DNA from: Candidatus Eiseniibacteriota bacterium
GTDB taxonomy: Bacteria > Eisenbacteria > RBG-16-71-46
Assembly: GCA_041483195.1 (NCBI GenBank)
Contig: JBGPFC010000004.1
Location: 1-64,000, forward strand
DNA: 64,000 bases
Direction of reading: 5' to 3'
Positions 26,835-45,827 of this stretch are shown here, piece after piece. A model generated the notes under the pieces. The model did not search any database. It was not told where the DNA came from and worked only from the letters and a program-made list of their open reading frames with translations. Made by a program: the position numbers and the translations under genes. The stretch's first letter is position 1; every line of letters begins with the position of its first letter.

Positions 26835-27554
26835 TCACCAATTCCCCGCCGTGCTGGCCTGCTCCTTCCATCGTTCTTCATTCACGCCGAACACGATGAG
26901 CCACAGGATCTGCGGTGCTGCCCCGAGGAGGCCGAGGGCTGCGACGTAGAGGAACAGACGGGGTCCGAGCGTCGGTGACAGGAAGGTCAGCAGGCCCAGG
27001 CCCGCAAGCATCGACAACACGCCCAGGATCCGAGGCAGGAAGGTGGACCTGACGATGAGGTAGCCCTTCAGGAGCGCATAGAATCCGAAAAATGCCAGGC
27101 CGATCCCGGCGGCATGGTCATTCACCCTGAGGAAGAGGAGCGCCAGCGCCTGCAACTGGCCCGTGCTGAATACGCTCAAGTAGTGCGCGCCCCCCAGGAT
27201 GAACAAGGGGGCGATGAAGAAGAGGCGGCCGAGGGTCTTGATGACGCAACCGGTGAGGCTCAAGAACGCGGCAATCAGAGAGACGCTCCTGCCCACTGGT
27301 TTGAGCAGGTCATAGAAAATGGCGGTCACCGCGATCTGGCAGGCCATCTCGATCATGTAGACTGCGAAGCCCAGCTCGTACATGCCCCGGTGCGTCAGGA
27401 TGTTGGTCGCCGTCGCTGCGGCGTCGCCGGATACGACGAGCTTGTCGCTCACGAAGCCCTGGGCGAATACTCCCGTCAAGATGTTGAGGAGAGCGAGCAC
27501 TCCGGCAATCCTGGCCTTGCGCCGCGGCGACGCTCCTGCAATCCGTTCCATCAT
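26835..27554 (-). CDS. DUF4386 family membrane protein
   Basis: ARIAGVL, GDAAATATNI and STFLPRILG. Confidence 0.85.
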   Translation of the reverse strand: MMERIAGASPRRKARIAGVLALLNILTGVFAQGFVSDKLVVSGDAAATATNILTHRGMYELGFAVYMIEMACQIAVTAIFYDLLKPVGRSVSLIAAFLSLTGCVIKTLGRLFFIAPLFILGGAHYLSVFSTGQLQALALLFLRVNDHAAGIGLAFFGFYALLKGYLIVRSTFLPRILGVLSMLAGLGLLTFLSPTLGPRLFLYVAALGLLGAAPQILWLIVFGVNEERWKEQASTAGNW

Positions 27555-32681: not shown

Positions 32682-35105
32682 ATGAAGCTGCGTCGCGGCG
32701 TGGCCGTGCTGGCCCTGCTGCTGATTCACCCGCGCGTTCTCCATGCGCAACCGCCCACCGAGGGCGTGGTCACTGGCATCGTGACCGACGCGTCGACCCG
32801 CGCCCCGCTGGAAAACGCCAACTTGCTGCTGCGCAGCCGGGCCGATTCCAGCCGCGTCTTCGCGACCACGACCCTCAAGGATGGCGCGTTCCTCTTCCCC
32901 CACGTTCCGCCCGGCGCCTACGTCGTGGAATGCAGCCTCATCGGGCATACCAGCTTCCGCTCGCCGGAGTTCGTGCTCGGCGCGGCGAGCCCACGCATGG
33001 ATCTTCGGACCATCTCCCTGAAACCATCGGCACTGCTGCTCGACGAGGTCGTGATCACTTCGGAGAGGAGTCTCTTCAACAACAGCATCGACCGCCGCGT
33101 GTACAACGTCGATCACGACCTGATGGCCAAGTCCAGCTCGGTAAGCGATCTCCTGCAGAACATCCCATCGGTCCAGGTGGACGTCGATGGCGGCGTTAGC
33201 CTGCGCGGCTCGCCCGACGTGATGATCCTGATCAACGGCAAGAAGTCGCCGCTGATGGGCAAGAGCCGGGCGGACGTGCTGCAGCAGCTCCCGGCCGCCA
33301 CCATCGAGAAGATCGAGGTGATCACGAACCCCTCGGCCCGATTCACGCCAGAGGGCACGTCGGGCATCATTAACATCGTCACCAGGAAGGGCGCCGGATC
33401 CGGGGTCAACGGCGACGTGACGGGGCACGTGGGCACGGCGAGCCGAAGCAACGAGAACCTCTCGCTCGGATACAGGCCGGGCAAGCTCGAGCTGTTCGTG
33501 AACTACAGCCACCGCGACGACCGAAGAAAGCGCATCGGCACGGACGCGCGGAGCCAGATTGCCTCGGGCTCGACGCACAATTCCCTCGAAGACAATCAGA
33601 TCGCGATGCGCCCGCGCGTGCACCTCGGAACTCTGGGCTTGAGCTACCACCCGGATCCGAAGAACACCCTGGAGCTTTCGTCGGAGTACTTCGACCGCCG
33701 GCCCTCGCGCGAGGGGCTCTCCACGATCGTCTCGCAGGGCACTGGCGGCGCGATCCTCTCGGACTACGACCGGCGGCAGTCGGGCTACGAGTCGGAGCAA
33801 GAGACGGGCGGCACCGCCGCATTCGAGCACGACTTTCCGAAGGAGGACCACAATCTGCGGGTCGAGGCCAACGTCTCCGACGTCCCGCAGACGGAGCTGG
33901 CGAACTTCGTCGAGCACTGGCGCACGCCCGCGAAGCCCGATCCCGCGAGCACCATTCTGCTCCGACAGACGGAGCGCCAGGGGCACGTCACGCTCGATTA
34001 CGCCGACCCGGTGGACGAGCAGTCGAAGCTCGAGGCGGGTTACGCGCTGGAAGTGCACCGACAGGACATCCGCTCCGACGCCGAGTCGCTCGACGTGATC
34101 CAGCAGGCGTTCCGACAGGACCTCTCGAAGACGTATCGGTTCAAGCTGGATCAGGCGATCCATGCGGTGTACGGCACCTACGAGCGCTCGCTCGGCAAGT
34201 TCAGCGTGCTCGGAGGGCTGCGGGCGGAGTACGCAAGCGTGAGGTCCGACCTCGTCACCGGCGGGTCGCCGTTCGACGATAAGTACTCCGGGCTCTATCC
34301 GACGCTGCACATGGCCTACCAGGCAAGCGAGCGCGGCCAGGTGCAGCTCAACTACAGCCGCCGGATCCGGAGGCCGGAGAGCGACGACCTCAATCCGTTC
34401 CCGGAATACACGGACCCGTACAACATCGATTCCGGCAACCCGCGGCTCAAGCCCGAATCGATCCACTCGTACGAGCTCGGCTACCGGCTGCGGGGCGAGC
34501 ATTTCTCCTTGGCCCCCACGATCTACTACCGCGACCGGCGCGATGGATTCACGCGGGTGACGCAGGCGATCAACGACTCCACGTTCCTCCGGACCATGGC
34601 GAATCTCGCGAGCGATCGATCCGCGGGGCTCGAGCCGGTGGTGACGATGTCGGTGGGGCGGGCGCTGCAGGCGAACCTGAACGGGAACGTGTTCTACGAC
34701 CAGATCGACGCGTCGAACATCGGGTACGCCGGCAAGAAGTCGGTGGTCTCGTGGAGCGGGACGTTCAACGCGACCGTCACCCCGTGGACCGCGACCGCGT
34801 TCGAGCTGAACTCCAACTACCGCTCGGCCCGGCTCACCCCGCAGGGAGACTCGCGCCCGAGCTTCGGCCTGAACGTGGGGGCGAGACAGAATCTGTTTCG
34901 CGATCGAGTCTCAGTGACCGTTGCCGTCTCGGACCTGCTCAAGACCCAGAGGCAGGAGACGCGGCTGGATGTCTCCGGGATCCAGCAGCGGGTGACGAAT
35001 AAACGGGATGCGCAGATCGTGTACGCGGGCGTTACCTATCACTACGGGCGGCCGGCGAAGGACGAGAAGAAGGAGAAGGGGCTGCAGTGGGAGGACGCGC
35101 CGTAG
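32682..35105 (+). CDS. TonB-dependent receptor-like outer-membrane beta-barrel
   Basis: Signal peptide, carboxypeptidase-regulatory-like domain, plug (DLLQNIPSV...IEKIEVITNPSARF...GIINIV), NYSRRIRRP and GNPRLKPE. Confidence 0.88.
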   Translation: MKLRRGVAVLALLLIHPRVLHAQPPTEGVVTGIVTDASTRAPLENANLLLRSRADSSRVFATTTLKDGAFLFPHVPPGAYVVECSLIGHTSFRSPEFVLGAASPRMDLRTISLKPSALLLDEVVITSERSLFNNSIDRRVYNVDHDLMAKSSSVSDLLQNIPSVQVDVDGGVSLRGSPDVMILINGKKSPLMGKSRADVLQQLPAATIEKIEVITNPSARFTPEGTSGIINIVTRKGAGSGVNGDVTGHVGTASRSNENLSLGYRPGKLELFVNYSHRDDRRKRIGTDARSQIASGSTHNSLEDNQIAMRPRVHLGTLGLSYHPDPKNTLELSSEYFDRRPSREGLSTIVSQGTGGAILSDYDRRQSGYESEQETGGTAAFEHDFPKEDHNLRVEANVSDVPQTELANFVEHWRTPAKPDPASTILLRQTERQGHVTLDYADPVDEQSKLEAGYALEVHRQDIRSDAESLDVIQQAFRQDLSKTYRFKLDQAIHAVYGTYERSLGKFSVLGGLRAEYASVRSDLVTGGSPFDDKYSGLYPTLHMAYQASERGQVQLNYSRRIRRPESDDLNPFPEYTDPYNIDSGNPRLKPESIHSYELGYRLRGEHFSLAPTIYYRDRRDGFTRVTQAINDSTFLRTMANLASDRSAGLEPVVTMSVGRALQANLNGNVFYDQIDASNIGYAGKKSVVSWSGTFNATVTPWTATAFELNSNYRSARLTPQGDSRPSFGLNVGARQNLFRDRVSVTVAVSDLLKTQRQETRLDVSGIQQRVTNKRDAQIVYAGVTYHYGRPAKDEKKEKGLQWEDAP

Positions 35106-35397: not shown

Positions 35398-36039
35398 TCA
35401 CTCTGGTTTCTTCGCCCCACGGGCAGCTGAATCGCGCACTCCCGGCGCAAGACCGCGCACAAGTCCACGAGCGCTGTCAGGACTTGAGCGGAGAACCGCC
35501 GCCGTCTCCAATGAGGGCGCTTGCCGTGGGATCACCGCTGTGTCCATCGCACCGACAAAGTCGCGCTCGATCGTAGGAGCAAGCCGCGGGACCGCGTAGT
35601 TGGCGCCCATGCTCGCGAGCACACCGAGGCCAAACACCACAGCGCCCCGAAGAAACTGACGCCACCGTGTCTTGTGTCGGACAAAGAATGGCATGGACCT
35701 GACTACCCACTCCCCCAGGGCAAATCCCAAGAGCACGCTTACAAACCCGAGCATCCAGGTGCCCGAGGCACGATAGGCCACAAGCATCCAGTAGAAGCTC
35801 AGGGTCGCCATCGTCGAAGCGAAGACCCATTTGAACGCCAGCAGCTTCGCACTATCCCGTCCTGGTGGCGGAAACGTCTCGAATGTCTCCTGCATGAGTA
35901 AGAGCGCCAGCAGGATGAAACAGCTCTCGAGCCACGCCGCTGACTTTCCCCGCCCGAGGCCCCGACTGAAGACCGCGGCTGCAATCGTGAAACTCGTCAC
36001 CGTGACAAGGGCCGAGTTGTTCCTGACCCACTCCCGCAA
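35398..36039 (-). CDS. Hypothetical multi-pass membrane protein downstream of the RT
   Basis: About five hydrophobic helices; lower GC; no recognised family. Confidence 0.55.
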   Translation of the reverse strand: MREWVRNNSALVTVTSFTIAAAVFSRGLGRGKSAAWLESCFILLALLLMQETFETFPPPGRDSAKLLAFKWVFASTMATLSFYWMLVAYRASGTWMLGFVSVLLGFALGEWVVRSMPFFVRHKTRWRQFLRGAVVFGLGVLASMGANYAVPRLAPTIERDFVGAMDTAVIPRQAPSLETAAVLRSSPDSARGLVRGLAPGVRDSAARGAKKPE

Positions 36040-36094
36040 TTCATGGCGAATGGGCAGAACCTGATCGGGGTCGACGATCAGGGGGCTCTCCTCG

Positions 36095-36170
36095 GAGCCT
36101 GTCCTGATTTCTGTGCAAGCCCCTTCCCGGTCACGCGGTCAGGCGCTTACACAAAATCAGGTACAGGCTC
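36095..36170. repeat. 76-bp element with 26-bp imperfect inverted arms
   Basis: GAGCCTGT-CCTGATTTCTGTGCAAGC versus the reverse complement of the right arm GAGCCTGTACCTGATTT-TGTGTAAGC. Confidence 0.7.
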
Positions 36171-36317
36171 GGCGATTTTCCGACACCCTTGGAGATTGGA
36201 GCTTTCACTACGCTGGCTCCCCGTGATGCCCCTGTGCCGCGACGCCCGCTCCGCCAGTTCGCCGAACCAAGAGGTTGCTCCGAGTTGTATGTTCCTCGAA
36301 GGCAAAATGCCGTCCGC

Positions 36318-37685
36318 CTAGAGTTCGCGCCGCAGCCGCTCCTCCGCGGCGCGGATTTCTCGGTTCAAACGCACCCAGAGCGCGCCGACCTGCTTCCGCA
36401 ACGGCATGCTTTCCGCCGCCAAGGCTGCGTCGCGTCCGTAGTGGATGAAGTTCCGATTCCGGGCGCGCTTCGGGTCTTGCGGTCCAAAAGTTCTGGCACT
36501 TCGACCCATGAACGAGAACTTCCGATACAACTTCCGCCGAAAGATCCTATCAATACGATTCCGCCGAGCCGCTGACTCTGCCGACCGAACACCATGCACC
36601 ATCTTCGCGATGAATCCCGCGACTGTTGCTTGCCTCAGCCGAATCGCATTCCCATCCCAGGCAAGGCCAAGGTACTGCAGAGAAACCGGCGACTTGTCCA
36701 GCACTTGCCCCTCTGTCGAGAGCCCAAGACCCGTCTGCCGACCAGCCGTTGATCGGAACGCCACCCGAATCGTCTTGGATTCCTGCACCGTAAGCTTAAC
36801 GCCTTCGACTGCCGAGATGACTGTAGCTTCGGCTTGTCTTGCGTATCCCGGCGGGCAGACCACCAGGATATCGTCGCTGTAGCGTCGATAGCTCGCCCCG
36901 AATTCGCCCAACTGTTCATGCAACGACTCGTCCCCTGCCAACATGTAGAGGTTCGCCAACACCGCGCTAATGGGCGAACCCTGAGGGATGCCGGCCGCCG
37001 AGCGGTTGCATTGAACGTGTGGGCGCAGCATGCTCCTGAACTCCTCAGGGCTGCATACGCGGGCGCCGGCGCGGCCTCGCCGGCGCGGAACGTCCCGACC
37101 CAGGAGATTGCGCACGCTTCCCCGATCGATCCAGCTGTACCGGGTGATTGCCCTGTAGATCGCGAAATGGTCTCTTGGGAGCGTTCGCCCCGTCCCCAAT
37201 ATGCCCAGCCAACGCGCTTTCAGAACACCGTGGTCAAGACTACCGAAGAAATCCTTGAGGTCGAGCGCGATCACATCGCAGTCGCCCGCATGTGCAATCT
37301 CTCGAAATGCGGCAACTGCAAAATCTACGTTGTTCCTCGGTGGACTCAGTTGACGATACGCAAGAACCGAAGCGCCAAAAGGACGCCGATAGTGCTGATC
37401 GAGCATCGTGGTGAGGTCAGAGGCGTACTTCGAGTAAATGTGGCTATCCATGTGGGCCGCAGAGCAGAGCTCACGCTGCTTGGGCTGACCCCGATGGCGC
37501 TTTTTCGTGTCAGGGTCCCGGACATAGCGTGGGGTAGTCTTCGTGAAGCGAAGAAATGGCCAGAACGCGTGTCTGGCGACACATTCGGGATCGACGCAAT
37601 AGGCGATGGCGCGGTCCGGGGCGACCGGCCGGTCGAAATGCGCGTATCCGCGCTGGCGGAACAACGGATGTCTCTCGGCGCTCAC
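36318..37685 (-). CDS. Antiviral reverse transcriptase, DRT2/UG2-like
   Basis: RGYAHFD, HAFWPFL, AHMDSHIY, VLAYR, NVDFA, ALDLKDFFGSLDH, LPRDHFAIYRAIT, GIPQGSPISAVLANLYM, YRRYSDD and QYLG. GTG 37685 is preferred because ATG 37727 lies in an ncRNA hairpin loop. Confidence 0.85.
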   Translation of the reverse strand: MSAERHPLFRQRGYAHFDRPVAPDRAIAYCVDPECVARHAFWPFLRFTKTTPRYVRDPDTKKRHRGQPKQRELCSAAHMDSHIYSKYASDLTTMLDQHYRRPFGASVLAYRQLSPPRNNVDFAVAAFREIAHAGDCDVIALDLKDFFGSLDHGVLKARWLGILGTGRTLPRDHFAIYRAITRYSWIDRGSVRNLLGRDVPRRRGRAGARVCSPEEFRSMLRPHVQCNRSAAGIPQGSPISAVLANLYMLAGDESLHEQLGEFGASYRRYSDDILVVCPPGYARQAEATVISAVEGVKLTVQESKTIRVAFRSTAGRQTGLGLSTEGQVLDKSPVSLQYLGLAWDGNAIRLRQATVAGFIAKMVHGVRSAESAARRNRIDRIFRRKLYRKFSFMGRSARTFGPQDPKRARNRNFIHYGRDAALAAESMPLRKQVGALWVRLNREIRAAEERLRREL

Positions 37686-37699
37686 GGATGATTTCCGAT

Positions 37700-37977
37700 G
37701 TAGCGGTGGAGGGCGGATCGACGGCATCCGCAGACGCCCTCCACCTCAAAGTTACCGAAGCACCGTGACGAAGCACTTCGAGTATGTCCACGCCCGTCGT
37801 CCTAGGACAATCGAAAGGAGCGTATGATCGTGATGCTGATCCTGCTCGTCGCGCTGATCGTCTCACCGTGGCCCGACTTCGGGCGGCAGGTGGCCGGCTG
37901 GGCCGGGTCCGCGTTGGTTGCGGCACTCACAGGCGAGTTGCAGCACACCCCTCCGCTTGAGCATCAACCCCAAGCGC
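37700..37977 (-). ncRNA. Predicted DRT2-type template/scaffold ncRNA (about 280 nt)
   Basis: Hairpins at 37954-37959/37971-37976, 37916-37949 and 37785-37789/37805-37809; a multibranch with a cUUCGg loop near 37745-37782; an 11-bp stem at 37705-37715/37735-37745; lies directly 5' of the RT. Ends approximate. Confidence 0.7.
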
Positions 37978-37985
37978 GCAGGTAG
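37824..37985 (+). other. Antisense neo-like ORF (genomic, permuted form; 53 aa)
   Basis: SD AAAGGAG at 37814-37820 and GC3-rich codons encoding MIVMLILLVALIVSPWPDFGRQVAGWAGSALVAALTGELQH... Confidence 0.6.
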
Positions 37986-38013
37986 AGTAAGTCCCGCGTT
38001 GGGCGCCGGTCAA
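37984..38013 (-). promoter_or_regulatory. Predicted sigma70 promoter for the ncRNA-RT transcript
   Basis: TTGACC-N18-TACTCT on the minus strand, just upstream of the first hairpin. Confidence 0.55.
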
Positions 38014-38118
38014 GCACCTGATCAGCTGTTGGAGGCCAGGGACCCGAGCCGGGATTCCCTAGGCTCCATTCCTTAAGAGGGGACACCCCACGAGCTTGGG
38101 CACGTTAGAGCTACCGGT

Positions 38119-40317
38119 TCACTCAGCAAGGATCTCGTCCGCGAGATCGTCGAGGCCCGCGCGTGCGACAGGACCAACTTTCGTCTTCGCTCGGTTAATG
38201 TGATCCCGCACCCGGCGCCTGATCACGCGCTCCGGGAGATCCCGAATCCCCTCACGCACTGCCTCAGCCTCGTCCAGAATTTCCGGCGTCATGTAACGCA
38301 CAATACCAGCATCCATAATAAGGGGCAGGCGCTCTTCTGTGGCTTTTGTGACCCGTCGCCTAACTGGGCCAAACGCCAAGTAGTTCACGAGAAAGTCTGC
38401 GCTCAGAACCGGCGAGTCAGGCGCCGTCCCTTTCATGAGCGATCCGAGGCGCGGTCTGAGATCAAACGCGCGCCGATCGATAGTCAGCCACCACGCATCA
38501 TATCCGAATGGGGATGCCTTCTGCATCGACCGCAACTGTGTGATCCCACAATAGCATTCTACGTCGTGCTCCACCAAATGCGTGATAGCCATCTCATCAA
38601 TCAACATGTCCTTCGGTCTCCGACGCGCCTCATGAGCCTCATACCAGACCTGCTGCAGGGCGTTTCTTAGGTCCGCACCTGCTCTATCCCGCTCCTCGTG
38701 CAAGTCGCGACGCTGCACCCCAAACTCATCTTCGAGATAGCTCGCGATATCGTTCTCCGGCTGTTCGTCCCCACGAAAGTTTTCCAGCCAGCCCGCAAAC
38801 TCTCCCCGCGTGCGACCGCTGGCTGCGAAGCGGTCGAGCAAGTAGGGTACTCTTCCAATCCACTGCCCAGCCTTCATTCGTGCGCACGCCACAGCACGGT
38901 TCATGTGCCGCTCGATTTCTTCGATTACGCCGGCGGTCACGTAAAGCTCGATACCTGCCTCGCGCGCCGCTCGCATCATTCTCGTAAACCGTCCGCCTCC
39001 TTCTTCGTCAAGAGACTCTGCCAAGAGCGGCAACGCTATTGTCGTGTCGAGCCAGAGCCTTCCGCCAGAAAACATCTTCCCAACCGCCGCTTCGACATCT
39101 GGCGTTTGTCGCAAGAACGCGAGGAGTGTATGCGCATCGATCAGCGTGCGCAGATGCCCCCGAATCGCCGGGTCATCGCTAAGAACCACCTCGCTGACAC
39201 CACCCTCAAGTGCCGCCATCCAGTCCACGCCGTCGCGCTTTGGTAATGCGTTTGCCGCCAAGTCAGCCAGTGCTGCTGTCTTGAGATCGTCGCTTGGGGG
39301 CATCGTCGGCCCGCCGCTCTGCACGGCCAAGGCAAACGCCTGACTGCGCTGGAAGAGGACAGCTTCTGACGTTCTCCTCATAGCGGCAGCGAGGAGTCGG
39401 CTGTCCTCAGGTGCAGCAGTGCTGTCCTGCAAGGTCGCGTCAGCAAGATTCTGTATCGCATCCTGGAGCCTAGCTTCAGCAAGTGCCGCTGCAATCTTGA
39501 ATTCGGCCAAGCGCAAGAGCTCCTCATGACTCAGGCAGAACTCGTCGTCCTTCGGGTAATGCCTTATGGCCTTTTTTGCCAAGCGCCTCAGAGCTGACTC
39601 AACGTAGGGCGCAATATCCTTCGCGTCGTGCCCCGGGAGCACGGCGCACACTCGCTCCCGCACCGCAGCACGGCTAAGCCGGTGGTTCGGGTCGGTGTGC
39701 GCCAACGCCGAGCGCACAAGTGCCTCAAAGGCCAGCTTTGTTAGGCCCTTCTCTCTGATGTCGTCCTGCCACTGGAGGCCGAGGTAGGTGAGTGCCGCTA
39801 CGGCCTCGGTGCCCGTGAGATCAGTTGCCCCTCTCGGACGGAGACCGTAATCGACGAGCAGTGGCTCGACTATCACCCGAGCCAGTTCATCTGCCGCGGC
39901 CTCCCGGGCATGATCTGTGTTGACGCGCTCGATGAACCAGCGCAGATCGCGAACATCCAGTCCTAGCGAGAACTCCTTGCGAAGCCTGCGCTTCAATTCA
40001 TCGGCAGCTGCACCTATGTTCTGGTTGCACATGTAAACTAGCGCGATCGCTTGTGGATGCGTCTTCTTCAGACGCTGCGCTGTCTTTACAATCTTGTTCT
40101 CCCAATTCGCGGCGACCGAGTACTGTACGGCGACCTGCGGCTCGTGTTCAGGGGAGAATAGCTCGCTGTCACGACCTCCATCGCCGCTAGCCGCTGCCGT
40201 CGTGCGAAGTTCGGAGAATTCCGCGGCCAAGAATACGGACGACAAGTGCTCAAAACGCTCCCAATCAGAGGGCTGAAGCCTCTCCAACGCCAGCTGAAAG
40301 CGCCCGCTGTTCATCAT
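38119..40317 (-). CDS. Large hypothetical protein: N-terminal PD-(D/E)xK REase-like domain plus C-terminal PIN-like domain
   Basis: WERFE...GDGGRD...QYS; LWLDTTIAL...YVTAGVIEEI...EHDVE; SD GGAGG. Confidence 0.6.
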   Translation of the reverse strand: MMNSGRFQLALERLQPSDWERFEHLSSVFLAAEFSELRTTAAASGDGGRDSELFSPEHEPQVAVQYSVAANWENKIVKTAQRLKKTHPQAIALVYMCNQNIGAAADELKRRLRKEFSLGLDVRDLRWFIERVNTDHAREAAADELARVIVEPLLVDYGLRPRGATDLTGTEAVAALTYLGLQWQDDIREKGLTKLAFEALVRSALAHTDPNHRLSRAAVRERVCAVLPGHDAKDIAPYVESALRRLAKKAIRHYPKDDEFCLSHEELLRLAEFKIAAALAEARLQDAIQNLADATLQDSTAAPEDSRLLAAAMRRTSEAVLFQRSQAFALAVQSGGPTMPPSDDLKTAALADLAANALPKRDGVDWMAALEGGVSEVVLSDDPAIRGHLRTLIDAHTLLAFLRQTPDVEAAVGKMFSGGRLWLDTTIALPLLAESLDEEGGGRFTRMMRAAREAGIELYVTAGVIEEIERHMNRAVACARMKAGQWIGRVPYLLDRFAASGRTRGEFAGWLENFRGDEQPENDIASYLEDEFGVQRRDLHEERDRAGADLRNALQQVWYEAHEARRRPKDMLIDEMAITHLVEHDVECYCGITQLRSMQKASPFGYDAWWLTIDRRAFDLRPRLGSLMKGTAPDSPVLSADFLVNYLAFGPVRRRVTKATEERLPLIMDAGIVRYMTPEILDEAEAVREGIRDLPERVIRRRVRDHINRAKTKVGPVARAGLDDLADEILAE

Positions 40318-40698
40318 GTCGTCCCTCCAATCACAGCTAGATCCTGCGCCCTCGGCCACTCCATAGATATTCGAGGACGTAGTGGGGATCCTTGTCATGA
40401 GTCATTGGCCCTACCGTCGCGAGATGGTTTCGCCCCTCGCCTACGAAGAGTTCCGCGCGACGCAGATCGCGCTGCGATGGCATCCGCGCCCCGAATGATT
40501 CGACAGCGGTCCCAGTCTTCACCATAGCAAAGCGCGGGAGAGGTTCCCAGTCCGTCGGGCCTTCGCCTTCGAAACTTCGCGATGAACCAACTGATCGCTG
40601 CTCGGAGTTGTGTAGGTCGTGCTCGTCCGCGATTGCAAGACTGTCGGATTCAAGCCTTGTCTCAAGGCTGCCGCGTACGACTTCCATCTTCTACCCCT

Positions 40699-41008
40699 CC
40701 CCCCGCTTCTTCGCCAGCACGCCCTCCCACGCCTTCATCCGCCTCGCGATCTCCGCCTCGAATCCCTCCTGCGTCGGCTCGTAAAACCGACGCCCCGCGA
40801 GTTCATCCGGCAGGTGCGCCTGATCGGTGATCCGATCCGGGTCGTCGTGTGCGTACTGGTAGCCCGCGCCGTAGCCCAGGTCCTTCATTAGCCGCGTCGG
40901 CGCATTGCGGATCACGAGCGGCGGCGGCAGGCTGCCGCACTTCTCGACCTCCTCGTTCGCGCGTCCGAAGCCCGCGTACACCGCCTCGCTCTTGGGCGCG
41001 ACGGCCAG
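40699..41008 (-). pseudogene. Duplicate 3' fragment of rarA (direct repeat of 43560-43869)
   Basis: About 310 bp, colinear at constant offset 2861; encodes LAVAPKS...GYQYAHD...LAKKRG. Confidence 0.9.
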
Positions 41009-41039
41009 CCCTTGCGAATCGCGCCCACTGCCAGCGCGG

Positions 41040-41942
41040 CTAAGCACGGTCCTTTGGCCGCCTGATGTGTCGGTCGATTGAATCTTGGAGGGACCTCGTC
41101 ATGCCTGCCTCCATCGCCACCGCCTGAACCAATCTGTTGCCGCGCTGGACCAGCGCACGCGCCAGATCCAGCCTCTCGGGCCCGAGCGTGTCACCATCCA
41201 TGTCACCCAGCAGGGAAACTAGCTTTTCCTGGTAAGCGACTACCTCTTCGGCAAGACCCGTCGTAATTCTCGGCCTTCTTGTGGCCTCGGAAACCTCCGC
41301 CAAGAGCGGCCTCAGCTCTCCGCTAAGGACCTCGCGCAGGACGTTCAGCGGAACCCCGCCCCCCCCGTCGCCGATCCTCTTCTCGACGCTCGCGACCGAG
41401 ATTCGAAGCTCCCCTACGGCTGCCAACACATCCGCGAGCTGCCGCTGCTCAGGATTGCCGCTTCGTCTCAGGAATTCGAGGTCCAGGGCGACCGAAATGG
41501 GGCTGTCCACTTCAGCCCCGGGCTGTTGCAGGCTCTTCATCTGCCGCTCAATCTCTCCTCTTGCCGCCTCCACGCTATCCAGATCGCGGTGGTCTACCTC
41601 CACGCTTCTGATGGCGGCAACATCGAATGGAATTCTTTCCCCTCGCTGTATTAGTTGGACGTATGGCTTTCTCAAGACATGGCGAATCGCCAATTCATAG
41701 AACACATTAGGATTGCGCTCCGTTAGGTCGGCGATCACGATTGGATCATCGACAATGTGTTGAATCACTTGTGTCGTTATCAGTCCCGGCTCACTAATCT
41801 GATCCGCGCGGATGGCATTATATCCACAGGCCCGCGCAGCTGGCTGGACAACGTACCGGAGGATTTGGTCCGATCGTCGCCGTGTATCTGAGTCCACGTC
41901 ACCAATCGGAGCTATGAATAGGCAAATCTTCTTGTCGTCCAT
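41040..41942 (-). CDS. Nucleoside 2-deoxyribosyltransferase-like / TIR-like domain protein
   Basis: CLFIAPIG, IRADQISEPGLIT, IADLTERNPNVFYELAIRH and IPFDV; helical C-terminus. Confidence 0.7.
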   Translation of the reverse strand: MDDKKICLFIAPIGDVDSDTRRRSDQILRYVVQPAARACGYNAIRADQISEPGLITTQVIQHIVDDPIVIADLTERNPNVFYELAIRHVLRKPYVQLIQRGERIPFDVAAIRSVEVDHRDLDSVEAARGEIERQMKSLQQPGAEVDSPISVALDLEFLRRSGNPEQRQLADVLAAVGELRISVASVEKRIGDGGGGVPLNVLREVLSGELRPLLAEVSEATRRPRITTGLAEEVVAYQEKLVSLLGDMDGDTLGPERLDLARALVQRGNRLVQAVAMEAGMTRSLQDSIDRHIRRPKDRA

Positions 41943-42047
41943 TGATCCACCTCCGAGACCTCTACGCCACCAGGCGCATGTGACCGCAGGCCCTCAAGCA
42001 GATCGCACGCTGAACGACTTGCTGCGGGGTCTGCACCGGTTCGACGC

Positions 42048-43193
42048 CTACAAAAAACTGACGCTCACGAGCGTCACGTCGTCCTCCTGTCCAATCTCGG
42101 CAGAGAACTCCGTCCCCGCTGAAATAAGCTCGTCGAGAAGCACCTCACCCCCCATTGGCCAACGCGCAATCTGCTCAACGACTCGCGTCGCGCCGAAGAA
42201 GTCGTCTGGGCCTCTAAGATCCAGCATTCCATCCGTGAGGAGAAGAAGTCGCTCGGAGCCCACAAACGGCACTACTTGTTTTACGTGCGGAAGCGATCGC
42301 AGCTCAGGCATCGGTGAAATCATTGGTCCACTTTCCGTCAGAGGCACCGGTGGCCAATCGACTCCCCACTTGTATGGTGACGGGTGGCCCGCGTTCACGT
42401 ACTCGAGCACCTCGTTGTCGGGATCAATGCGCATCGCTACGAGTGTCACAAAATGAGTTTCAGTGCACTGGGCGAGTGACTCAGAGACGCGATGGACGAC
42501 GGCGTCTGGGGCAAAGTCTTCGGCGTTCGAGCTGTGAAACGCCGACTTCACGACAGCGGTCAGCATCGCCGGAGCGAGGCCGTGGCCGGCGATGTCCGCA
42601 AGAATCAACGCGACGCGCGAGCCGTCAAGGACTGCATAGTCTGCGAAATCACCACCGAGGCGAAATCGCGGTTTATAGCGGCAGGACAGTGAGAGCCGCC
42701 CGACGTTGGGGAACTTGGCTGGAACGAGGCCAGCCTGCAGGGCTCGCGCATCTTCAACTTCTCTCTTGTACCGCTGCCCGATGTGATATTCCTCGAGGAG
42801 CCATCGTTGGCTGAGACAGCGCTCCACAATGGCGCATAGCTCTTCGTCGCCAAACGGTTTCTGCAGATAGTAGAATGCGGTCTTCTGGAGTGCTTGCATG
42901 AGCCGATCGCCGAGCGTCTTGTAACCGGTCATGAGGATCACGTCTACGTCCGGAAGGAGCAGCTTCAGTTGATCGAGGAGTTCAAACCCAGCACTGTCGC
43001 TTTGGCCAAGAACCACATCGAGCATGATGAGCTTCGGGCGGAATTCTCTAGCGAGGTCTGGCGCTGCTCGCCAAGAGGCTGTGGTGGCGAGGTCATGCTG
43101 ATCCTGCAGCGCGAGATCAATTCGATGAAGTAGCTTTGGGTCGTCGTCGACGACCAGGATCCGCGTTCGGCGAGGACGACCATCCTGAATCAT
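42048..43193 (-). CDS. Receiver-domain + PP2C/SpoIIE phosphatase (RsbU-like)
   Basis: ILVVDDD, MLDV, YLQKPF; LGGDFAD, ADIAGHG, NAGHP, LLTDG and EDDVTLV. Confidence 0.85.
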   Translation of the reverse strand: MIQDGRPRRTRILVVDDDPKLLHRIDLALQDQHDLATTASWRAAPDLAREFRPKLIMLDVVLGQSDSAGFELLDQLKLLLPDVDVILMTGYKTLGDRLMQALQKTAFYYLQKPFGDEELCAIVERCLSQRWLLEEYHIGQRYKREVEDARALQAGLVPAKFPNVGRLSLSCRYKPRFRLGGDFADYAVLDGSRVALILADIAGHGLAPAMLTAVVKSAFHSSNAEDFAPDAVVHRVSESLAQCTETHFVTLVAMRIDPDNEVLEYVNAGHPSPYKWGVDWPPVPLTESGPMISPMPELRSLPHVKQVVPFVGSERLLLLTDGMLDLRGPDDFFGATRVVEQIARWPMGGEVLLDELISAGTEFSAEIGQEDDVTLVSVSFL

Positions 43194-43536
43194 CCGCGGA
43201 AACTCCTGTGGGCTTGCGCGGCGAGTGAAAGTTGCATCGCCTTCGCCAGTTCCTCTCGGGGGTGCGCACGCACATTCGCTGGCACGGAGATTGACGGCAG
43301 AGACGCGGAAAGCAGCCAACGAGGAGAGATTGATGAGTTGAGCGCTGGCAGGATAGCATACAAAGTCAAATCACGCTGGAAGATCCTCATGAACTTGGCT
43401 GCCGAAGCTCTCGAAATCGGGGAGATTTGATTCGAGCGCGAGGAGCGGGGATCCTTCACCTCGGTCGATGCGCGGCGATTGACTGTGCGGAACTCACACG
43501 CATTCGATGGTTGGTGAAAACTGAGTTCACGCCAGT

Positions 43537-44889
43537 CTAGGACTCGCGTGTTTTGGCGCCCCCCCGCTTCTTCGCCAGCACGCCCTCCCACGCCTTCATC
43601 CGCTTCGCGATCTCCGCCTCGAATCCCTCCTGCGTCGGCTCGTAGAACTTTCGCCCCGCGAGTTCATCCGGCAGGTGCGCCTGATCCGTGATGCGATCCG
43701 GGTCGTCGTGCGCGTACTGGTAGCCCGCGCCGTAGCCGAGGTCCTTCATCAGCCGCGTCGGCGCGTTGCGGATCACGAGCGGCGGCGGCAGGCTGCCGCT
43801 GGATTCGATCTCGGCGTTCGCCTTCCCGAATCCCGCGTACACCGCGTTGCTCTTGGGCGCGACCGCCAGGTACACGCAGCACTGCGCGAGCGCCAGCTCG
43901 CCCTCCGGGGATCCGAGCTGGTGATACGCCTGAAACGCCGCGACCGCGAGCGGCAGCGCGTGCGGATCGGCGTTGCCCACGTCCTCGCTCGCGAATCGCA
44001 CCAGCCGCCGCGCCACGTAGAGCGGGTCGTCGCCCGCGGCCAGCATGCGCGCGAGCCAGTAGAGGCCGGCGTGCGGGTCGGAGTCGCGCAGCGACTTGTG
44101 CAGCGCCGAGATCAGATTGAAGTGCTCCTCCCCCGCGCGGTCGTAACGCAGGTGGCGGCGCGCGAGCGCGGTGCGCACGTCCTCGGCGGTGATGCGCCCC
44201 GCCTTCGCGCCGGCCGCGGCCACCTCGAGCGTGTTGAGCGCGCGCCGCGCGTCGCCGTCTGCGGCCTGCGCCAGCAGCTCGAGCGCGTCATCGTCCGCCG
44301 CGATCTTGCCGCCGAAGCCGCGCTCGGGATCCGCGAGCGCGCGTTCCACCAGCTGCCGCAGATCGGCGGGCGCGAGTTCCTTCAGCACCACGACCCGCGC
44401 GCGCGAGAGCAACGCGGCGTTCACCTCGAACGATGGGTTCTCGGTGGTGGCGCCGATCAGCACGATGTCGCCCTTTTCGACGTGCGAGAGGAACGCGTCC
44501 TGCTGCGCCTTGTTGAAGCGGTGGATCTCGTCGACGAACAGGATGGTCGAGCGCTTGGTGCGGCGCCGCTCCTGCGCGGCGCGCTGCATGATCTCCTTGG
44601 CTTCCTTCACGCCCGAGAGCACGGCGCTCACCGCGACGAAGGGCGCGCCCGCGGTGCGCGCGATCAGGCGCGCGATGGTGGTCTTGCCGCTCCCGGGCGG
44701 GCCCCACAGCACGATCGAGGAGAGATGCTTCCCGTCGCGCATGAGCGCGAGCGCGCTGCCGGGGGCGAACAGCTGCGACTGCCCGAGCAGCTCGTCGAAC
44801 GTGCGCGGGCGCATGCGGTCCGCGAGCGGGGCGCCGGGGTCGGGCGCTCCCTGCGCGGCGGCCGCGTTGCCGAATAGATCGTCTGTCAT
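43537..44889 (-). CDS. rarA: Replication-associated recombination protein A
   Basis: PLADRMRP, WGPPGSGKTT, DEIHRFNKAQQDAFL, ATTENPSF, ISALHKSLR and ASEDVG motifs. Confidence 0.95.
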   Translation of the reverse strand: MTDDLFGNAAAAQGAPDPGAPLADRMRPRTFDELLGQSQLFAPGSALALMRDGKHLSSIVLWGPPGSGKTTIARLIARTAGAPFVAVSAVLSGVKEAKEIMQRAAQERRRTKRSTILFVDEIHRFNKAQQDAFLSHVEKGDIVLIGATTENPSFEVNAALLSRARVVVLKELAPADLRQLVERALADPERGFGGKIAADDDALELLAQAADGDARRALNTLEVAAAGAKAGRITAEDVRTALARRHLRYDRAGEEHFNLISALHKSLRDSDPHAGLYWLARMLAAGDDPLYVARRLVRFASEDVGNADPHALPLAVAAFQAYHQLGSPEGELALAQCCVYLAVAPKSNAVYAGFGKANAEIESSGSLPPPLVIRNAPTRLMKDLGYGAGYQYAHDDPDRITDQAHLPDELAGRKFYEPTQEGFEAEIAKRMKAWEGVLAKKRGGAKTRES

Positions 44890-45827
44890 TCGCGCTCGTC
44901 CGGGCCGCCCGCGCGCGCGTGCGGGGGACGCTCGGGCTCGAGCGACGGGGCGATCGCGGGGCGCGGGAGTTCCGGAAGCGAGACGACCTCGTCTCGCGGG
45001 GCCCACCGCATGATCGCGCGCGCCGCCTCCTCAACGTCGATCGGGCGCCCGAGCTTCGCGCCGAGCGATTCGAGCCGCGCGAACAGCTCGGCGAGCACCG
45101 GCGGCTCGATGTTGCTGCGCAGCAGCATCGCGGGATCGCGGAAGATCTCGCGCGGCGCGCCCTGCGCCACGATCTCGCCGCCGCGCAGCAGCACGTACAC
45201 CATGTCGGCCATCGCGGGCACCACGTTCACGTCGTGGGTCGCGATCACGAGCGTCACGCCGTGCTCGGTATGGAGCCGGTTCAGGAGCGCGACCAGGTCG
45301 CGGCGCGATGCGGGATCGAGCCCCTCGAACGGCTCGTCGAGCACCAGCAGCTCGGGCGAGAGCACCAGCGCGCCCGCGAGCGCCACCTTGCGCTTCTCGC
45401 CGCCCGAGAGGTGATGGCACACCTTGTCGCGCAGGTGCGCGATGCCCACCTTCTCGAGCGCGGCGTGCACCAGGCGATCGACCTCTTCGTCGGCGTAGCC
45501 GTAGTTGCGCGGCGAGAACGAGACGTCGTCCCACACGGTGGGCGCGATGATCTGCTCCTCGACGTTCTGCAGCAGCACGCCCACGCGCTCGCGGATACGG
45601 TTGAAGTGGCGGGCGGGATTGACGCCGAACACCGAGACCTCGCCCTCCTGCGGCTCGAGCAGCCCGAGGATGTGGAACAGCAGGGTGGTCTTGCCGCAGC
45701 CGTTGGGCCCGAGGATCAGCACGCGCTGGCCCCTCGCGACCACGAAGTCGAGCCCGCACAGGTGGACCTGGGTGCGATCGGGATAGGTGTGCCGCACGCA
45801 CGAGACGCGCACCACGGTCTCGCTCAT
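44886..45827 (-). CDS. cbiO: ECF Co/Ni transporter ATPase
   Basis: GPNGCGKTT, LSGGEKRKVALAG and LDEP motifs. Confidence 0.85.
   Translation of the reverse strand: MSETVVRVSCVRHTYPDRTQVHLCGLDFVVARGQRVLILGPNGCGKTTLLFHILGLLEPQEGEVSVFGVNPARHFNRIRERVGVLLQNVEEQIIAPTVWDDVSFSPRNYGYADEEVDRLVHAALEKVGIAHLRDKVCHHLSGGEKRKVALAGALVLSPELLVLDEPFEGLDPASRRDLVALLNRLHTEHGVTLVIATHDVNVVPAMADMVYVLLRGGEIVAQGAPREIFRDPAMLLRSNIEPPVLAELFARLESLGAKLGRPIDVEEAARAIMRWAPRDEVVSLPELPRPAIAPSLEPERPPHARAGGPDERE

Follow-up and report, generated by a model that had tools for sequence, protein, structure and literature searches.

A divergent DRT2 locus with a candidate neo repeat gene antisense to its predicted leader RNA

Analysis of a 64-kb stretch of bacterial DNA (hereafter the window) identified a new, somewhat divergent example of the known DRT2 system. 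In all likelihood it constitutes a two-part anti-phage system, comprising a non-coding RNA (ncRNA) and a Drt2 reverse transcriptase (RT), in which a neo repeat gene would be made from a template within the RNA. It is established that the RT is of the Drt2 family, that the sequence elements are present in the geometry given below, and that the antisense frame shows codon periodicity; the system is apparently intact. Judging from the nucleotide sequence, a hidden neo repeat gene appears to be located antisense to the leader. Such an antisense proto-gene is a real hallmark of DRT2, and it had gone unnoticed in the original prediction.

As originally proposed, the RT encoded by this locus (Table 1) is a member of the Drt2/UG2 family, and no other RT class fits it. 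It scored 404.1 bits (E 2.6e-121) and 362.1 bits with the PADLOC Drt2 profiles, compared with 66.8 bits for UG17 (the next best class), 47.6 bits for Drt9/UG28 and at most 45 bits for the retron and group II profiles. With the NCBIfam Drt2 equivalog NF041746 the score was 392.2 bits, which exceeds the cut-off (390) by a margin of only 2 bits. The scores obtained with other NCBIfam models were below their cut-offs: (i) group II RT/maturase (57.4 vs 300), (ii) retron St85 (52.7 vs 235) and (iii) Drt3a (47.4 vs 200). Comparison with solved Drt2 structures (PDB 9c0i) gave an E value of 8.9e-74, with residues 3-443 aligned, i.e. the full length of the protein. On the basis of the PADLOC, NCBIfam and PDB scores, the RT does not fall into another class, the outcome that the original prediction had named as speaking against it; identities as a group II intron, retron, DRT9 or Cas-linked RT were rejected on the HMM scores. 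Pfam recognized RVT_1 only, and no maturase, HNH or other fused domain, in agreement with the description of the protein as a standalone RT. The blocks RGYAHFD, HAFWPFL, AHMDSHIY, VLAYR and YSDD were all found where they had been reported. The reading frame has no internal stops, YxDD is intact, and the residues invariant in the alignment of the Drt2 family are all retained.

The automatic ORF call opens the RT gene at ATG 37727. This start was rejected, since it is placed within the loop of the terminal hairpin of the predicted RNA. GTG 37685 is most probably the true start, because it fits better the N-termini of the family and of P0007, the Drt2 protein of locus L002 (from a Planctomycetota MAG), which is the closest relative whose DNA was compared. 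The N-terminal extensions called for two metagenomic relatives (P0002 and P0005) contain the residues KDAVDP, which correspond to the terminal loop translated in that frame.

Table 1. Positions of the features identified or predicted within the DRT2 locus (coordinates refer to the window)
Feature	Position	Strand	Basis or remarks
Drt2 (UG2) reverse transcriptase gene	36318..37685	-	455 aa from GTG start
Catalytic YSDD of the RT	36881-36870	-	Read from the sequence
Putative promoter from which ncRNA and RT would be transcribed: TTGACC, 18 nt, TACTCT	37984..38013	-	Read from the sequence
Predicted DRT2 ncRNA, ~277 nt	37701..37977	-	Both ends inferred
5' handle hairpin CGCUUG...CAAGCG; 6-bp stem, 11-nt loop	37954..37976	-	MFE fold and sequence
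Best template candidate, 138 nt (46 codons)	37810..37947	-	Flanked by UGU 37947-37945 and UGU 37809-37807
Pseudoknot, 5' strand CGACGG	37794..37799	-	Perfect complement of CCGUCG 37724-37719
Predicted middle hairpin of the 3' scaffold (tower/buttress position), contains CUUCGG	37754..37783	-	MFE fold only
Terminal hairpin, 11-bp outer stem GGUGGAGGGCG/CGCCCUCCACC, loop GGAUGCCGUCGAUCC	37705..37745	-	Loop carries the pseudoknot 3' strand (37724-37719)
GCUA, putative priming 3' end of the ncRNA	37701..37704	-	After the terminal hairpin, ahead of GTG
Candidate neo proto-gene, antisense to the ncRNA	37815..37985	+	SD AAGGAG 37815-37820, ATG 37824

As read from the sequence, the elements of an ncRNA of about 280 nt (5' handle, 3' hairpin, pseudoknot and GCUA end), located upstream of the RT gene and on the same strand, occupy the positions typical of the family. 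The existence of this RNA and its ends are predicted by homology. The 5' end was set approximately 7 nt past the -10 hexamer, and the 3' end at the A of GCUA, by analogy with the K. pneumoniae DRT2 (KpnDRT2) RNA, whose 3' end is given as G277..A280 in excerpts of Wilkinson et al. 2024 (PMC12039810). The priming role of GCUA is likewise proposed after KpnDRT2 as described in those excerpts. A GCUA-type end occurs shortly past the hairpin in most of the relatives. The predicted RNA may be divided into three parts: a 5' handle of 30 nt, a template of 138 nt and a scaffold of 109 nt.

Both hexamers of the promoter that had been proposed are present (TTGACC at 38013-38008 and TACTCT at 37989-37984), and 20 of the 27 columns of the -10/start block are identical to those of L002. 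A consensus promoter scan called no promoter at the leader, which can be explained by TACTCT matching only 3 of 6 positions. The same scan indicated two terminator-like sites, both at chance level. The hairpin announced for the 5' end was found, and relatives have one at the same position. The MFE fold has a z-score of -2.09, and 5 of 100 shuffled sequences folded equally well.

A site immediately 3' of the template candidate is complementary to the loop of the terminal hairpin, giving a 6-bp pseudoknot. Across the family, pairing in this pseudoknot amounts to 98.5%, and 4 of its 5 pairs show compensatory changes. The family-level structure, including the pseudoknot, also covaries: 90.4% of cells are paired, vs 75.6% in shuffles, and compensatory changes occur in 13 of 16 pairs, a level that was reached in none of 500 shuffles. 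The 11-bp stem ahead of the GTG start, recognized from the outset, is present; among 3000 dinucleotide-shuffled versions of the leader, 12 contained a contiguous Watson-Crick stem of this length with a loop of 15-31 nt. The core of the terminal loop, GCCGUC, is identical in L002. A cUUCGg loop had also been predicted. The CUUCGG sequence is indeed present, but in the MFE fold it makes up one side of a longer hairpin instead of a tetraloop. A family-derived descriptor (hairpin, GCCG loop, pseudoknot complement and GC[TA] tail) gave 781 matches in the 8.34-Mb host genome, which corresponds to a probability of approximately 0.006 of a chance match in a 60-nt target.

Searches with RNA and nucleotide models gave less. 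Rfam yielded no families at E values up to 1 over positions 36000-38600, and neither blastn nor nhmmer found anything significant when the leader of L002 was compared with the window. R1, a covariance model that we built from 27 canonical DRT2 scaffolds, missed the leader when the 64-kb window was searched. With filters switched off (2.6 kb), it gave a weak local match to the leader (8.1 bits, E 0.17). In a benchmark, R1 detected all 4 unseen canonical loci (E ≤4.4e-12) and none of 8 loci of the clade to which the RT of this study belongs. The sole R1 match in the window, at 27248-27292 (E 5.3), is regarded as a chance occurrence.

The antisense strand of the leader contains a linear frame of 53 codons, which ends at TAG 37983-37985 (+) and whose Shine-Dalgarno (SD) sequence is separated from the ATG by only 3 nt. 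A coding signature spans its first 41 codons. The G+C content of the three codon positions is 0.69, 0.44 and 0.87, respectively, the last value being host-like, and the frame is free of stops. In two tests, 2 and 1 of 20000 shuffles, respectively, reached this periodicity; it was absent from the scaffold, which served as a control. Within the frame 37 of 41 codons end in G or C, vs 10 of 18 flanking in-frame codons (Fisher p 0.0045). The N-terminus is strongly hydrophobic (mean hydropathy of residues 1-15, 2.97). Among the matches listed, an antisense SD-ATG occurs at an equal relative place in 15 of 44 relatives. No significant periodicity was seen in the templates proposed for L002 and L020 (equalled in 2527 and 7320 of 20000 shuffles, respectively). 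Three loci of the same 22-row RT clade (L018, L023 and L020) retain canonical neo features. The strong GC3 bias of the host exposes the candidate antisense gene as codon periodicity within a predicted RNA gene, and this is a simple route to neo frames in divergent DRT2 clades in which motif-based annotation has failed.

The template that best accommodates this frame is the 138-nt candidate (37947-37810). Its antisense frame is stop-free over the repeat junction, its length is divisible by 3, it includes the SD-ATG, and one of the UGU copies is placed just beyond its 3' end. Joining of its ends would create TTGCAG-N17-TATGAT, in which the -35 matches 3 of 6 and the -10 matches 5 of 6 consensus positions. 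The jump site and the junction promoter are proposed by homology. No -10 was found upstream of the neo SD. In departure from the canonical arrangement, the RBS would be located within the promoter spacer and the -10 would overlap the start codon.

In a leader with 63% G+C, circular frames without stops occur often: 71 candidates whose flanking repeats are no shorter than 3 nt were obtained, a number at chance level. The solution is not unique, and 7 of the 71 retain the ATG; the 138-nt candidate is the only one that combines SD and ATG, a closed stop-free frame and a 17-nt junction promoter spacer. An in-frame TAG at 37803-37805 (+) blocks any extension of the template. Units of 123 nt (GCU flanks) and 141 nt (GCUC flanks) were rejected, as they exclude the SD and form no junction promoter, and a unit of 153 nt (GAU flanks) was rejected on account of its 13-nt spacer. 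The positions equivalent to the canonical ACA copies were also rejected as template ends (145 nt apart, not divisible by 3), and there is no ACA near the template's 5' end. The UGU flank comprises only 3 nt and is placed 10 nt from the pseudoknot strand, vs 5-7 nt in canonical loci. In the flank scan, canonical relatives have ACA-flanked units of 99-138 nt, while other clades depart from ACA, having (A)GCA, CGUUC or UGUUC. The UGU flanks of this study resemble UGUUC of L002 and CGUUC of two further loci (L054 and L092).

Based on these elements, the following mechanism may be proposed, in which cDNA synthesis, Neo toxicity and phage defence are ascribed to the locus by homology. The ncRNA and the RT would be produced from one promoter on the minus strand as one transcript. 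By analogy with K. pneumoniae, the RT would grip the ncRNA through the 5' hairpin and the pseudoknotted 3' scaffold, prime on the GCUA 3' end of the RNA itself, and copy the internal template, most likely the 138-nt candidate. At the template's 5' end it would jump back to the 3' end via the short flanking repeat (UGU), and repeated jumps would yield a tandem-repeat cDNA. Upon phage infection this cDNA would become double-stranded, and each repeat junction would unite the -35-like TTGCAG and the -10-like TATGAT at the 17-nt spacing. The antisense strand could then be transcribed, and its message, read from the SD-ATG onwards, would give an endless hydrophobic protein (Neo) with a repeat of 46 residues, which would arrest growth.

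The locus shares several traits with KpnDRT2: (i) an RT of the same family, matching structures 9c0i/9c0j over its full length, (ii) an upstream ncRNA on the same strand, predicted here at ~277 nt, vs 281 nt according to excerpts of Tang et al. 2024 (bioRxiv 10.1101/2024.05.08.593200), so that the layout and length of the leader agree with DRT2 as claimed at the outset, and (iii) going by the excerpted literature, an antisense repeat frame (a candidate in our case) that is hydrophobic and free of stops, has an RBS and ATG, and is built of a unit divisible by 3. The RT is approximately 36-37% identical to named Drt2 proteins and contains YSDD in place of the YCDD of KpnDRT2. In excerpts of Tang et al. 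2024 (bioRxiv 10.1101/2024.05.08.593200) and Wilkinson et al. 2024 (PMC12039810), the KpnDRT2 template comprises bases 29-148 of 281. The other differences, as far as the excerpted descriptions of KpnDRT2 go, concern the flanking repeat (UGU vs ACA, i.e. ACA-1/ACA-2), the repeat unit (138 nt in our candidate vs 120 nt), the proposed -10 (overlapping the start codon vs 13 nt upstream of the RBS) and the 3' scaffold (a predicted 109 nt vs ~133 nt); the canonical model R1 does not recognize the leader of this locus.

L002 has an RT with 46% identity, and shares with our locus (i) a GTG start after a conserved CAUCG, (ii) a terminal hairpin GGUGG...CCACC with the same loop core and the pseudoknot strand GACGG and (iii) a TATGNT hexamer overlapping ATG. 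Its template candidate has UGUUC flanks, 117 nt and a stop-free hydrophobic frame. It differs in its longer scaffold, lack of an SD, and an unfit junction promoter spacing of 11 nt. It is conceivable, though we put this forward only tentatively, that the RT clade formed by the protein of the window, its metagenomic relatives with 52-57% identity and L002 has a rewired DRT2 synthesis, with a UGU(N)C jump, a -10 overlapping the start and a repeat of 46 residues. Translation may then begin at the SD-ATG of the next repeat or at a leaderless AUG, and the product, with two hydrophobic segments per unit, would plausibly be a membrane protein built of repeats, as opposed to a soluble alpha-solenoid. 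Such a rewiring, if true, would supply a Neo annotation for divergent clades, in which this annotation is described as difficult in excerpts of Tang et al. 2024 (bioRxiv 10.1101/2024.05.08.593200). Should the UGU flanks and the rearranged promoter be confirmed, the jump motif and the expression signals of DRT2 would be interchangeable modules, which would be useful for the engineering of repeat-DNA synthesis.

Three other explanations were weighed against a neo-producing DRT2 system. The RT and ncRNA might be those of a DRT2 whose product, in this divergent clade, is not a translated neo, the cDNA acting in another way or through another effector. The lack of ACA flanks and of the canonical -10/RBS order is in line with this, as is the failure of the canonical covariance model with the whole clade (0/8 loci). 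We nevertheless consider it improbable, since a neo gene would be expected to show just such features as the antisense SD-ATG, the strong codon periodicity and the hydrophobic frame, no conserved partner gene accompanies the locus, and the three clade members named above keep canonical neo features. An inactive relic, i.e. a horizontally acquired DRT2 whose drifted RNA no longer supports repeat synthesis, would account for the atypical RNA (UGU flanks, weak covariance-model score), the low-GC island in which the locus is situated, and the lack of any second Drt2 among the 206 genomes searched in the phylum. This is very improbable given the intact RT frame with its invariant residues, the perfect pseudoknot and 11-bp hairpin, the stop-free neo frame with host-like GC3 (0.87), and the identical sequence in contigs of 4 further sediment runs.

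It is more improbable still that the ORF at 37824-37985 (+) encodes an ordinary membrane protein of 53 aa, perhaps similar to a type I toxin, with the leader as its antisense RNA and no rolling-circle synthesis. A linear ORF with its own SD, ATG and stop, the strongly hydrophobic N-terminus and a codon periodicity indicative of coding would suit a gene of this kind, but the coding signature ends after codon 41, which is the end of the template candidate and not the linear stop. Moreover, the linear DNA has no -35-like hexamer 17 nt upstream of TATGAT, and the truncated linear ORFs of relatives close only on circular permutation, as in K. pneumoniae; in the excerpted description of KpnDRT2, 'only 26 codons ... 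identifiable' are mentioned for its linear neo.

The DRT2 module stands alone at this locus, because the neighbouring genes (encoding 759 aa and 213 aa) have no homologs in 160 other DRT2 loci; their products gave no PADLOC or Pfam match. DRT9 (UG28) and DRT10 (UG17) resemble DRT2 in that an RT is accompanied by an upstream structured ncRNA templating repetitive DNA; according to their abstracts, these systems rely on protein priming for making homopolymers or short tandem repeats, and a SLATT partner is required in DRT10. No SLATT partner was found at our locus, and its RT is far from both (47.6 bits for Drt9 and 66.8 bits for UG17, vs 404 bits for Drt2).

The host is the only one of the 206 genomes of its phylum to carry a Drt2, and the locus was therefore probably acquired horizontally. 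Eleven sediment-metagenome DNA runs contain the stretch, and no RNA run is among its listed holders. The contigs of 4 of these runs agree with the window at every position covered and contain no deviating letters, indels or joints; they are silent on expression, variation and concatemers. Metagenomic relatives of the RT (P0002-P0006) are 52-57% identical to it. A metagenome scan of at least 597 stretches gave relatives with at most 37% identity among the matches listed, and nothing nearer than 33% was found in two viral-contig scans. The Drt2 family as a whole is large and distributed over many phyla: 1341 of the 8000 candidate proteins scored belong to it at E ≤1e-20, and 13,034 DRT2 loci are mentioned in the excerpt of a preprint.

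The minus-strand ORF within 36318-38013 encodes, judged by its sequence, a reverse transcriptase (RT) of the Drt2/UG2 family, as originally predicted. The blocks RGYAHFD, HAFWPFL, AHMDSHIY and VLAYR were confirmed by reading the sequence, and the PADLOC Drt2 model matched with 404.1 bits (E 2.6e-121), the next RT models being UG17 (66.8) and Drt9 (47.6). The ORF narrowly passes the NCBIfam Drt2 equivalog (392.2 vs a cut-off of 390) and lies far below the cut-offs of the NCBIfam group II, retron and Drt3a models. Pfam assigned RVT_1 only, in line with the proposed lack of a maturase or HNH tail, and residues 3-443 align to experimental structures of Drt2, 9c0i among them, with E 8.9e-74. The nearest proteins among the matches listed (57, 56 and 52% identity) are all encoded on short metagenome contigs, and identity to proteins named Drt2 is 36-37%. 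In a FastTree phylogeny of 168 rows, the RT joins the 52-57% metagenomic proteins and then L002, a locus of a Planctomycetota MAG (46%). They all belong to a clade of 22 rows with an SH-like support of 98, and the enterobacterial and Pseudomonas systems fall outside it.

Positions of features of the DRT2 locus and its surroundings
Feature	Position	Strand	Remark
TonB-dependent receptor gene	32682-35105		
213-aa ORF	35398-36039	-	downstream of RT
YSDD	36881-36870	-	catalytic; sequence read
GTG	37685	-	favoured RT start
GCUA tail	37704-37701	-	sequence read
11-bp stem hairpin	37745-37705	-	terminal hairpin
CCGUCG	37724-37719	-	in terminal loop
ATG	37727	-	start in ORF listing; rejected
CGACGG	37799-37794	-	pseudoknot 5' strand; pairs perfectly with CCGUCG
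AAGGAG (SD)	37815-37820	+	antisense to RNA
ATG of candidate neo	37824	+	opens hydrophobic frame
Template candidate	37947-37810	-	
5' hairpin	37976-37954	-	5' handle
TACTCT	37989-37984	-	proposed -10
TTGACC	38013-38008	-	proposed -35
759-aa ORF	38119-40398	-	directly upstream of DRT2 promoter
rarA/mgsA fragment	40691-41047	-	118 aa, C-terminal
Direct repeat copies	40699-40998; 43560-43859		300 nt
300-aa protein gene	41040-41942	-	
Receiver-SpoIIE/PP2C gene	42048-43319	-	
rarA/mgsA	43537-45006	-	full gene

The GTG is favoured as the RT start, giving 455 aa, because it agrees with the N-termini of the family and with L002, which also starts at a GTG that follows a conserved CAUCG; the ATG of the ORF listing falls inside the terminal-hairpin loop. 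Gene callers run Drt2 ORFs upstream into the ncRNA in the window (37686-37727) and in several related Drt2 proteins (P0002, P0005 and P0008). These spurious extensions are translations of the terminal hairpin, which makes Drt2 N-termini unreliable as annotated in high-GC genomes. In P0002 and P0005 the called extension reads KDAVDP, as the terminal loop of the window would if translated in that frame; this points indirectly to conservation of the loop among the closest relatives.

The defining features of DRT2 RNAs, drawn from Tang et al. (10.1101/2024.05.08.593200) and Wilkinson et al. (PMC12039810), were recovered in 160 related loci: (i) a 5' hairpin, (ii) a template between copies of a short flanking repeat, (iii) a (C)GCGGC strand 2-3 nt past the second repeat, pairing with a GCCGC(A) loop of a long terminal hairpin to form the pseudoknot, and (iv) a GCUA end after that hairpin. 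Across 27 aligned canonical scaffolds, pairing in the 11 hairpin and 5 pseudoknot pairs amounts to 90.4% (75.6% in shuffles), with compensatory change in 13 of 16 pairs; the observed values were reached in 0/500 shuffles.

The predicted leader RNA of the window has the same plan (handle, pseudoknot and GCUA). Both its 5' hairpin and the 11-bp stem hairpin preceding the GTG were found where proposed. The expected length of about 280 nt would also hold, at ~277 nt if the start is taken ~7 nt past the -10, comprising a 30-nt handle, a 138-nt template and a 109-nt scaffold. As for the predicted promoter, both hexamers are present with their 18-nt spacer, while a consensus promoter scan made no call. 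The full leader folds only modestly better than shuffles (z -2.09), and the 11-bp stem by itself arose in 12/3000 dinucleotide shuffles. L002 has the GGUGG...CCACC stem, the tail and the GCCGUC core of the loop in common with the window, and its -10/start block matches in 20/27 columns.

Formal searches for the predicted RNA gave weak results. Rfam gave no match for the leader, and the L002 leader used as query in blastn and nhmmer gave nothing significant. A covariance model that we built from canonical scaffolds did not find the leader when run over the window; with filters off it reached no more than 8.1 bits (E 0.17), for the terminal hairpin. This model found 4/4 unseen canonical loci (E <=4.4e-12) and 0/8 loci of the window RT's clade, and its silence therefore does not count against the RNA. 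A looser family-derived descriptor matched 781 sites on both strands of the 4.17-Mb genome, the window site included, which corresponds to a chance of ~0.006 for a 60-nt target.

The template candidate was chosen because it retains the SD-ATG, is bounded by an in-frame TAG directly outside, has UGU(N)C flanks and would form a candidate promoter at its junction (TTGCAG, 17 nt, TATGAT). The flanks resemble those of L002 (UGUUC, 117 nt) and of L054 and L092 (CGUUC, 129 nt). Several features speak against this candidate: its flank spans just 3 nt, differs from ACA and is 10 nt away from the strand of the pseudoknot; the proposed -10 overlaps the ATG; and the SD spacer is 3 nt. The exact bounds are about equally likely to be right or wrong. 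Some related DRT2 loci also have a flanking jump repeat other than ACA (L010, L012, L015, L017, L081, L054, L092 and L020): a scan gave (A)GCA for a group from Pseudomonas, CGUUC for L054 (Phycisphaeraceae MAG) and the related metagenome contig L092, and GGUU for an Acidobacteria MAG, with unit lengths still divisible by 3.

In a leader this rich in G+C, a stop-free circular frame is not diagnostic by itself: 71 candidates exist. Within the candidate, G+C by codon position is 0.69/0.44/0.87, a periodicity matched in 2/20000 and 1/20000 shuffles and absent from the 3' scaffold. GC3 is 37/41 from the ATG to codon 41 vs 10/18 in flanking in-frame codons (p 0.0045). An antisense SD-ATG occupies the same relative position in 15/44 relatives listed, whose linear ORFs stop in the in-frame -35.

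The locus is best read as following the DRT2 cycle described in the literature, everything past the sequence anatomy being taken from homology. The RT would self-prime and copy the template by rolling-circle reverse transcription; phage would trigger second-strand synthesis, and the junction-made promoter would drive transcription of an endless hydrophobic Neo repeat, whose translation would lead to growth arrest. Compared with the DRT2 family, which is large and spans many phyla (13,034 loci according to a preprint), the locus shows the protein features and most RNA features, and of these it lacks only the ACA identity of its flanks, which varies in other clades too. It is a DRT2 with a possible variant architecture. 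We found no paper resolving the neo genes of divergent clades; the supplements of Tang et al. may cover this clade.

The locus lies between the TonB-dependent receptor gene and the rarA 3' end. It holds the single Drt2 of its genome, found in 1/206 genomes of the phylum, and GC3 is 0.68 in the RT and 0.85-0.95 in host genes of the window; the locus was probably acquired horizontally. The two flanking genes (759 aa and 213 aa) have no family match and were not found beside the Drt2 genes of 160 other loci. The 759-aa ORF lacks a Pfam or PADLOC family, hits 'hypothetical protein' clusters only in the ESM Atlas (score 0.98, mostly Pseudomonadota) and lies in the same low-GC island; it is possibly a defence gene of an unrelated kind. 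The 213-aa ORF, without a match in Pfam, PADLOC or NCBIfam, looks by eye like a multi-pass membrane protein.

The region 35500-43500 has a low G+C content (0.56-0.62 vs 0.65-0.75 around), and its ORFs, the rarA fragment excepted, lack the host GC3; it looks like a composite foreign-DNA island between the receptor gene and rarA. A direct repeat (91% identity) duplicates the rarA/mgsA 3' end, the fragment sharing 92% protein identity with the full gene, and the copies enclose 2.5 kb that appear to have been inserted into this end; no integrase was seen. The inserted segment, possibly a defence or signalling cassette in its own right, encodes (i) a protein of 300 aa that matches the PADLOC 'TIR effector' model weakly (E 2.8e-07) and has no Pfam match, and (ii) a fusion of a response-regulator receiver with a SpoIIE/PP2C phosphatase (E 6.3e-16 and 9.2e-31).
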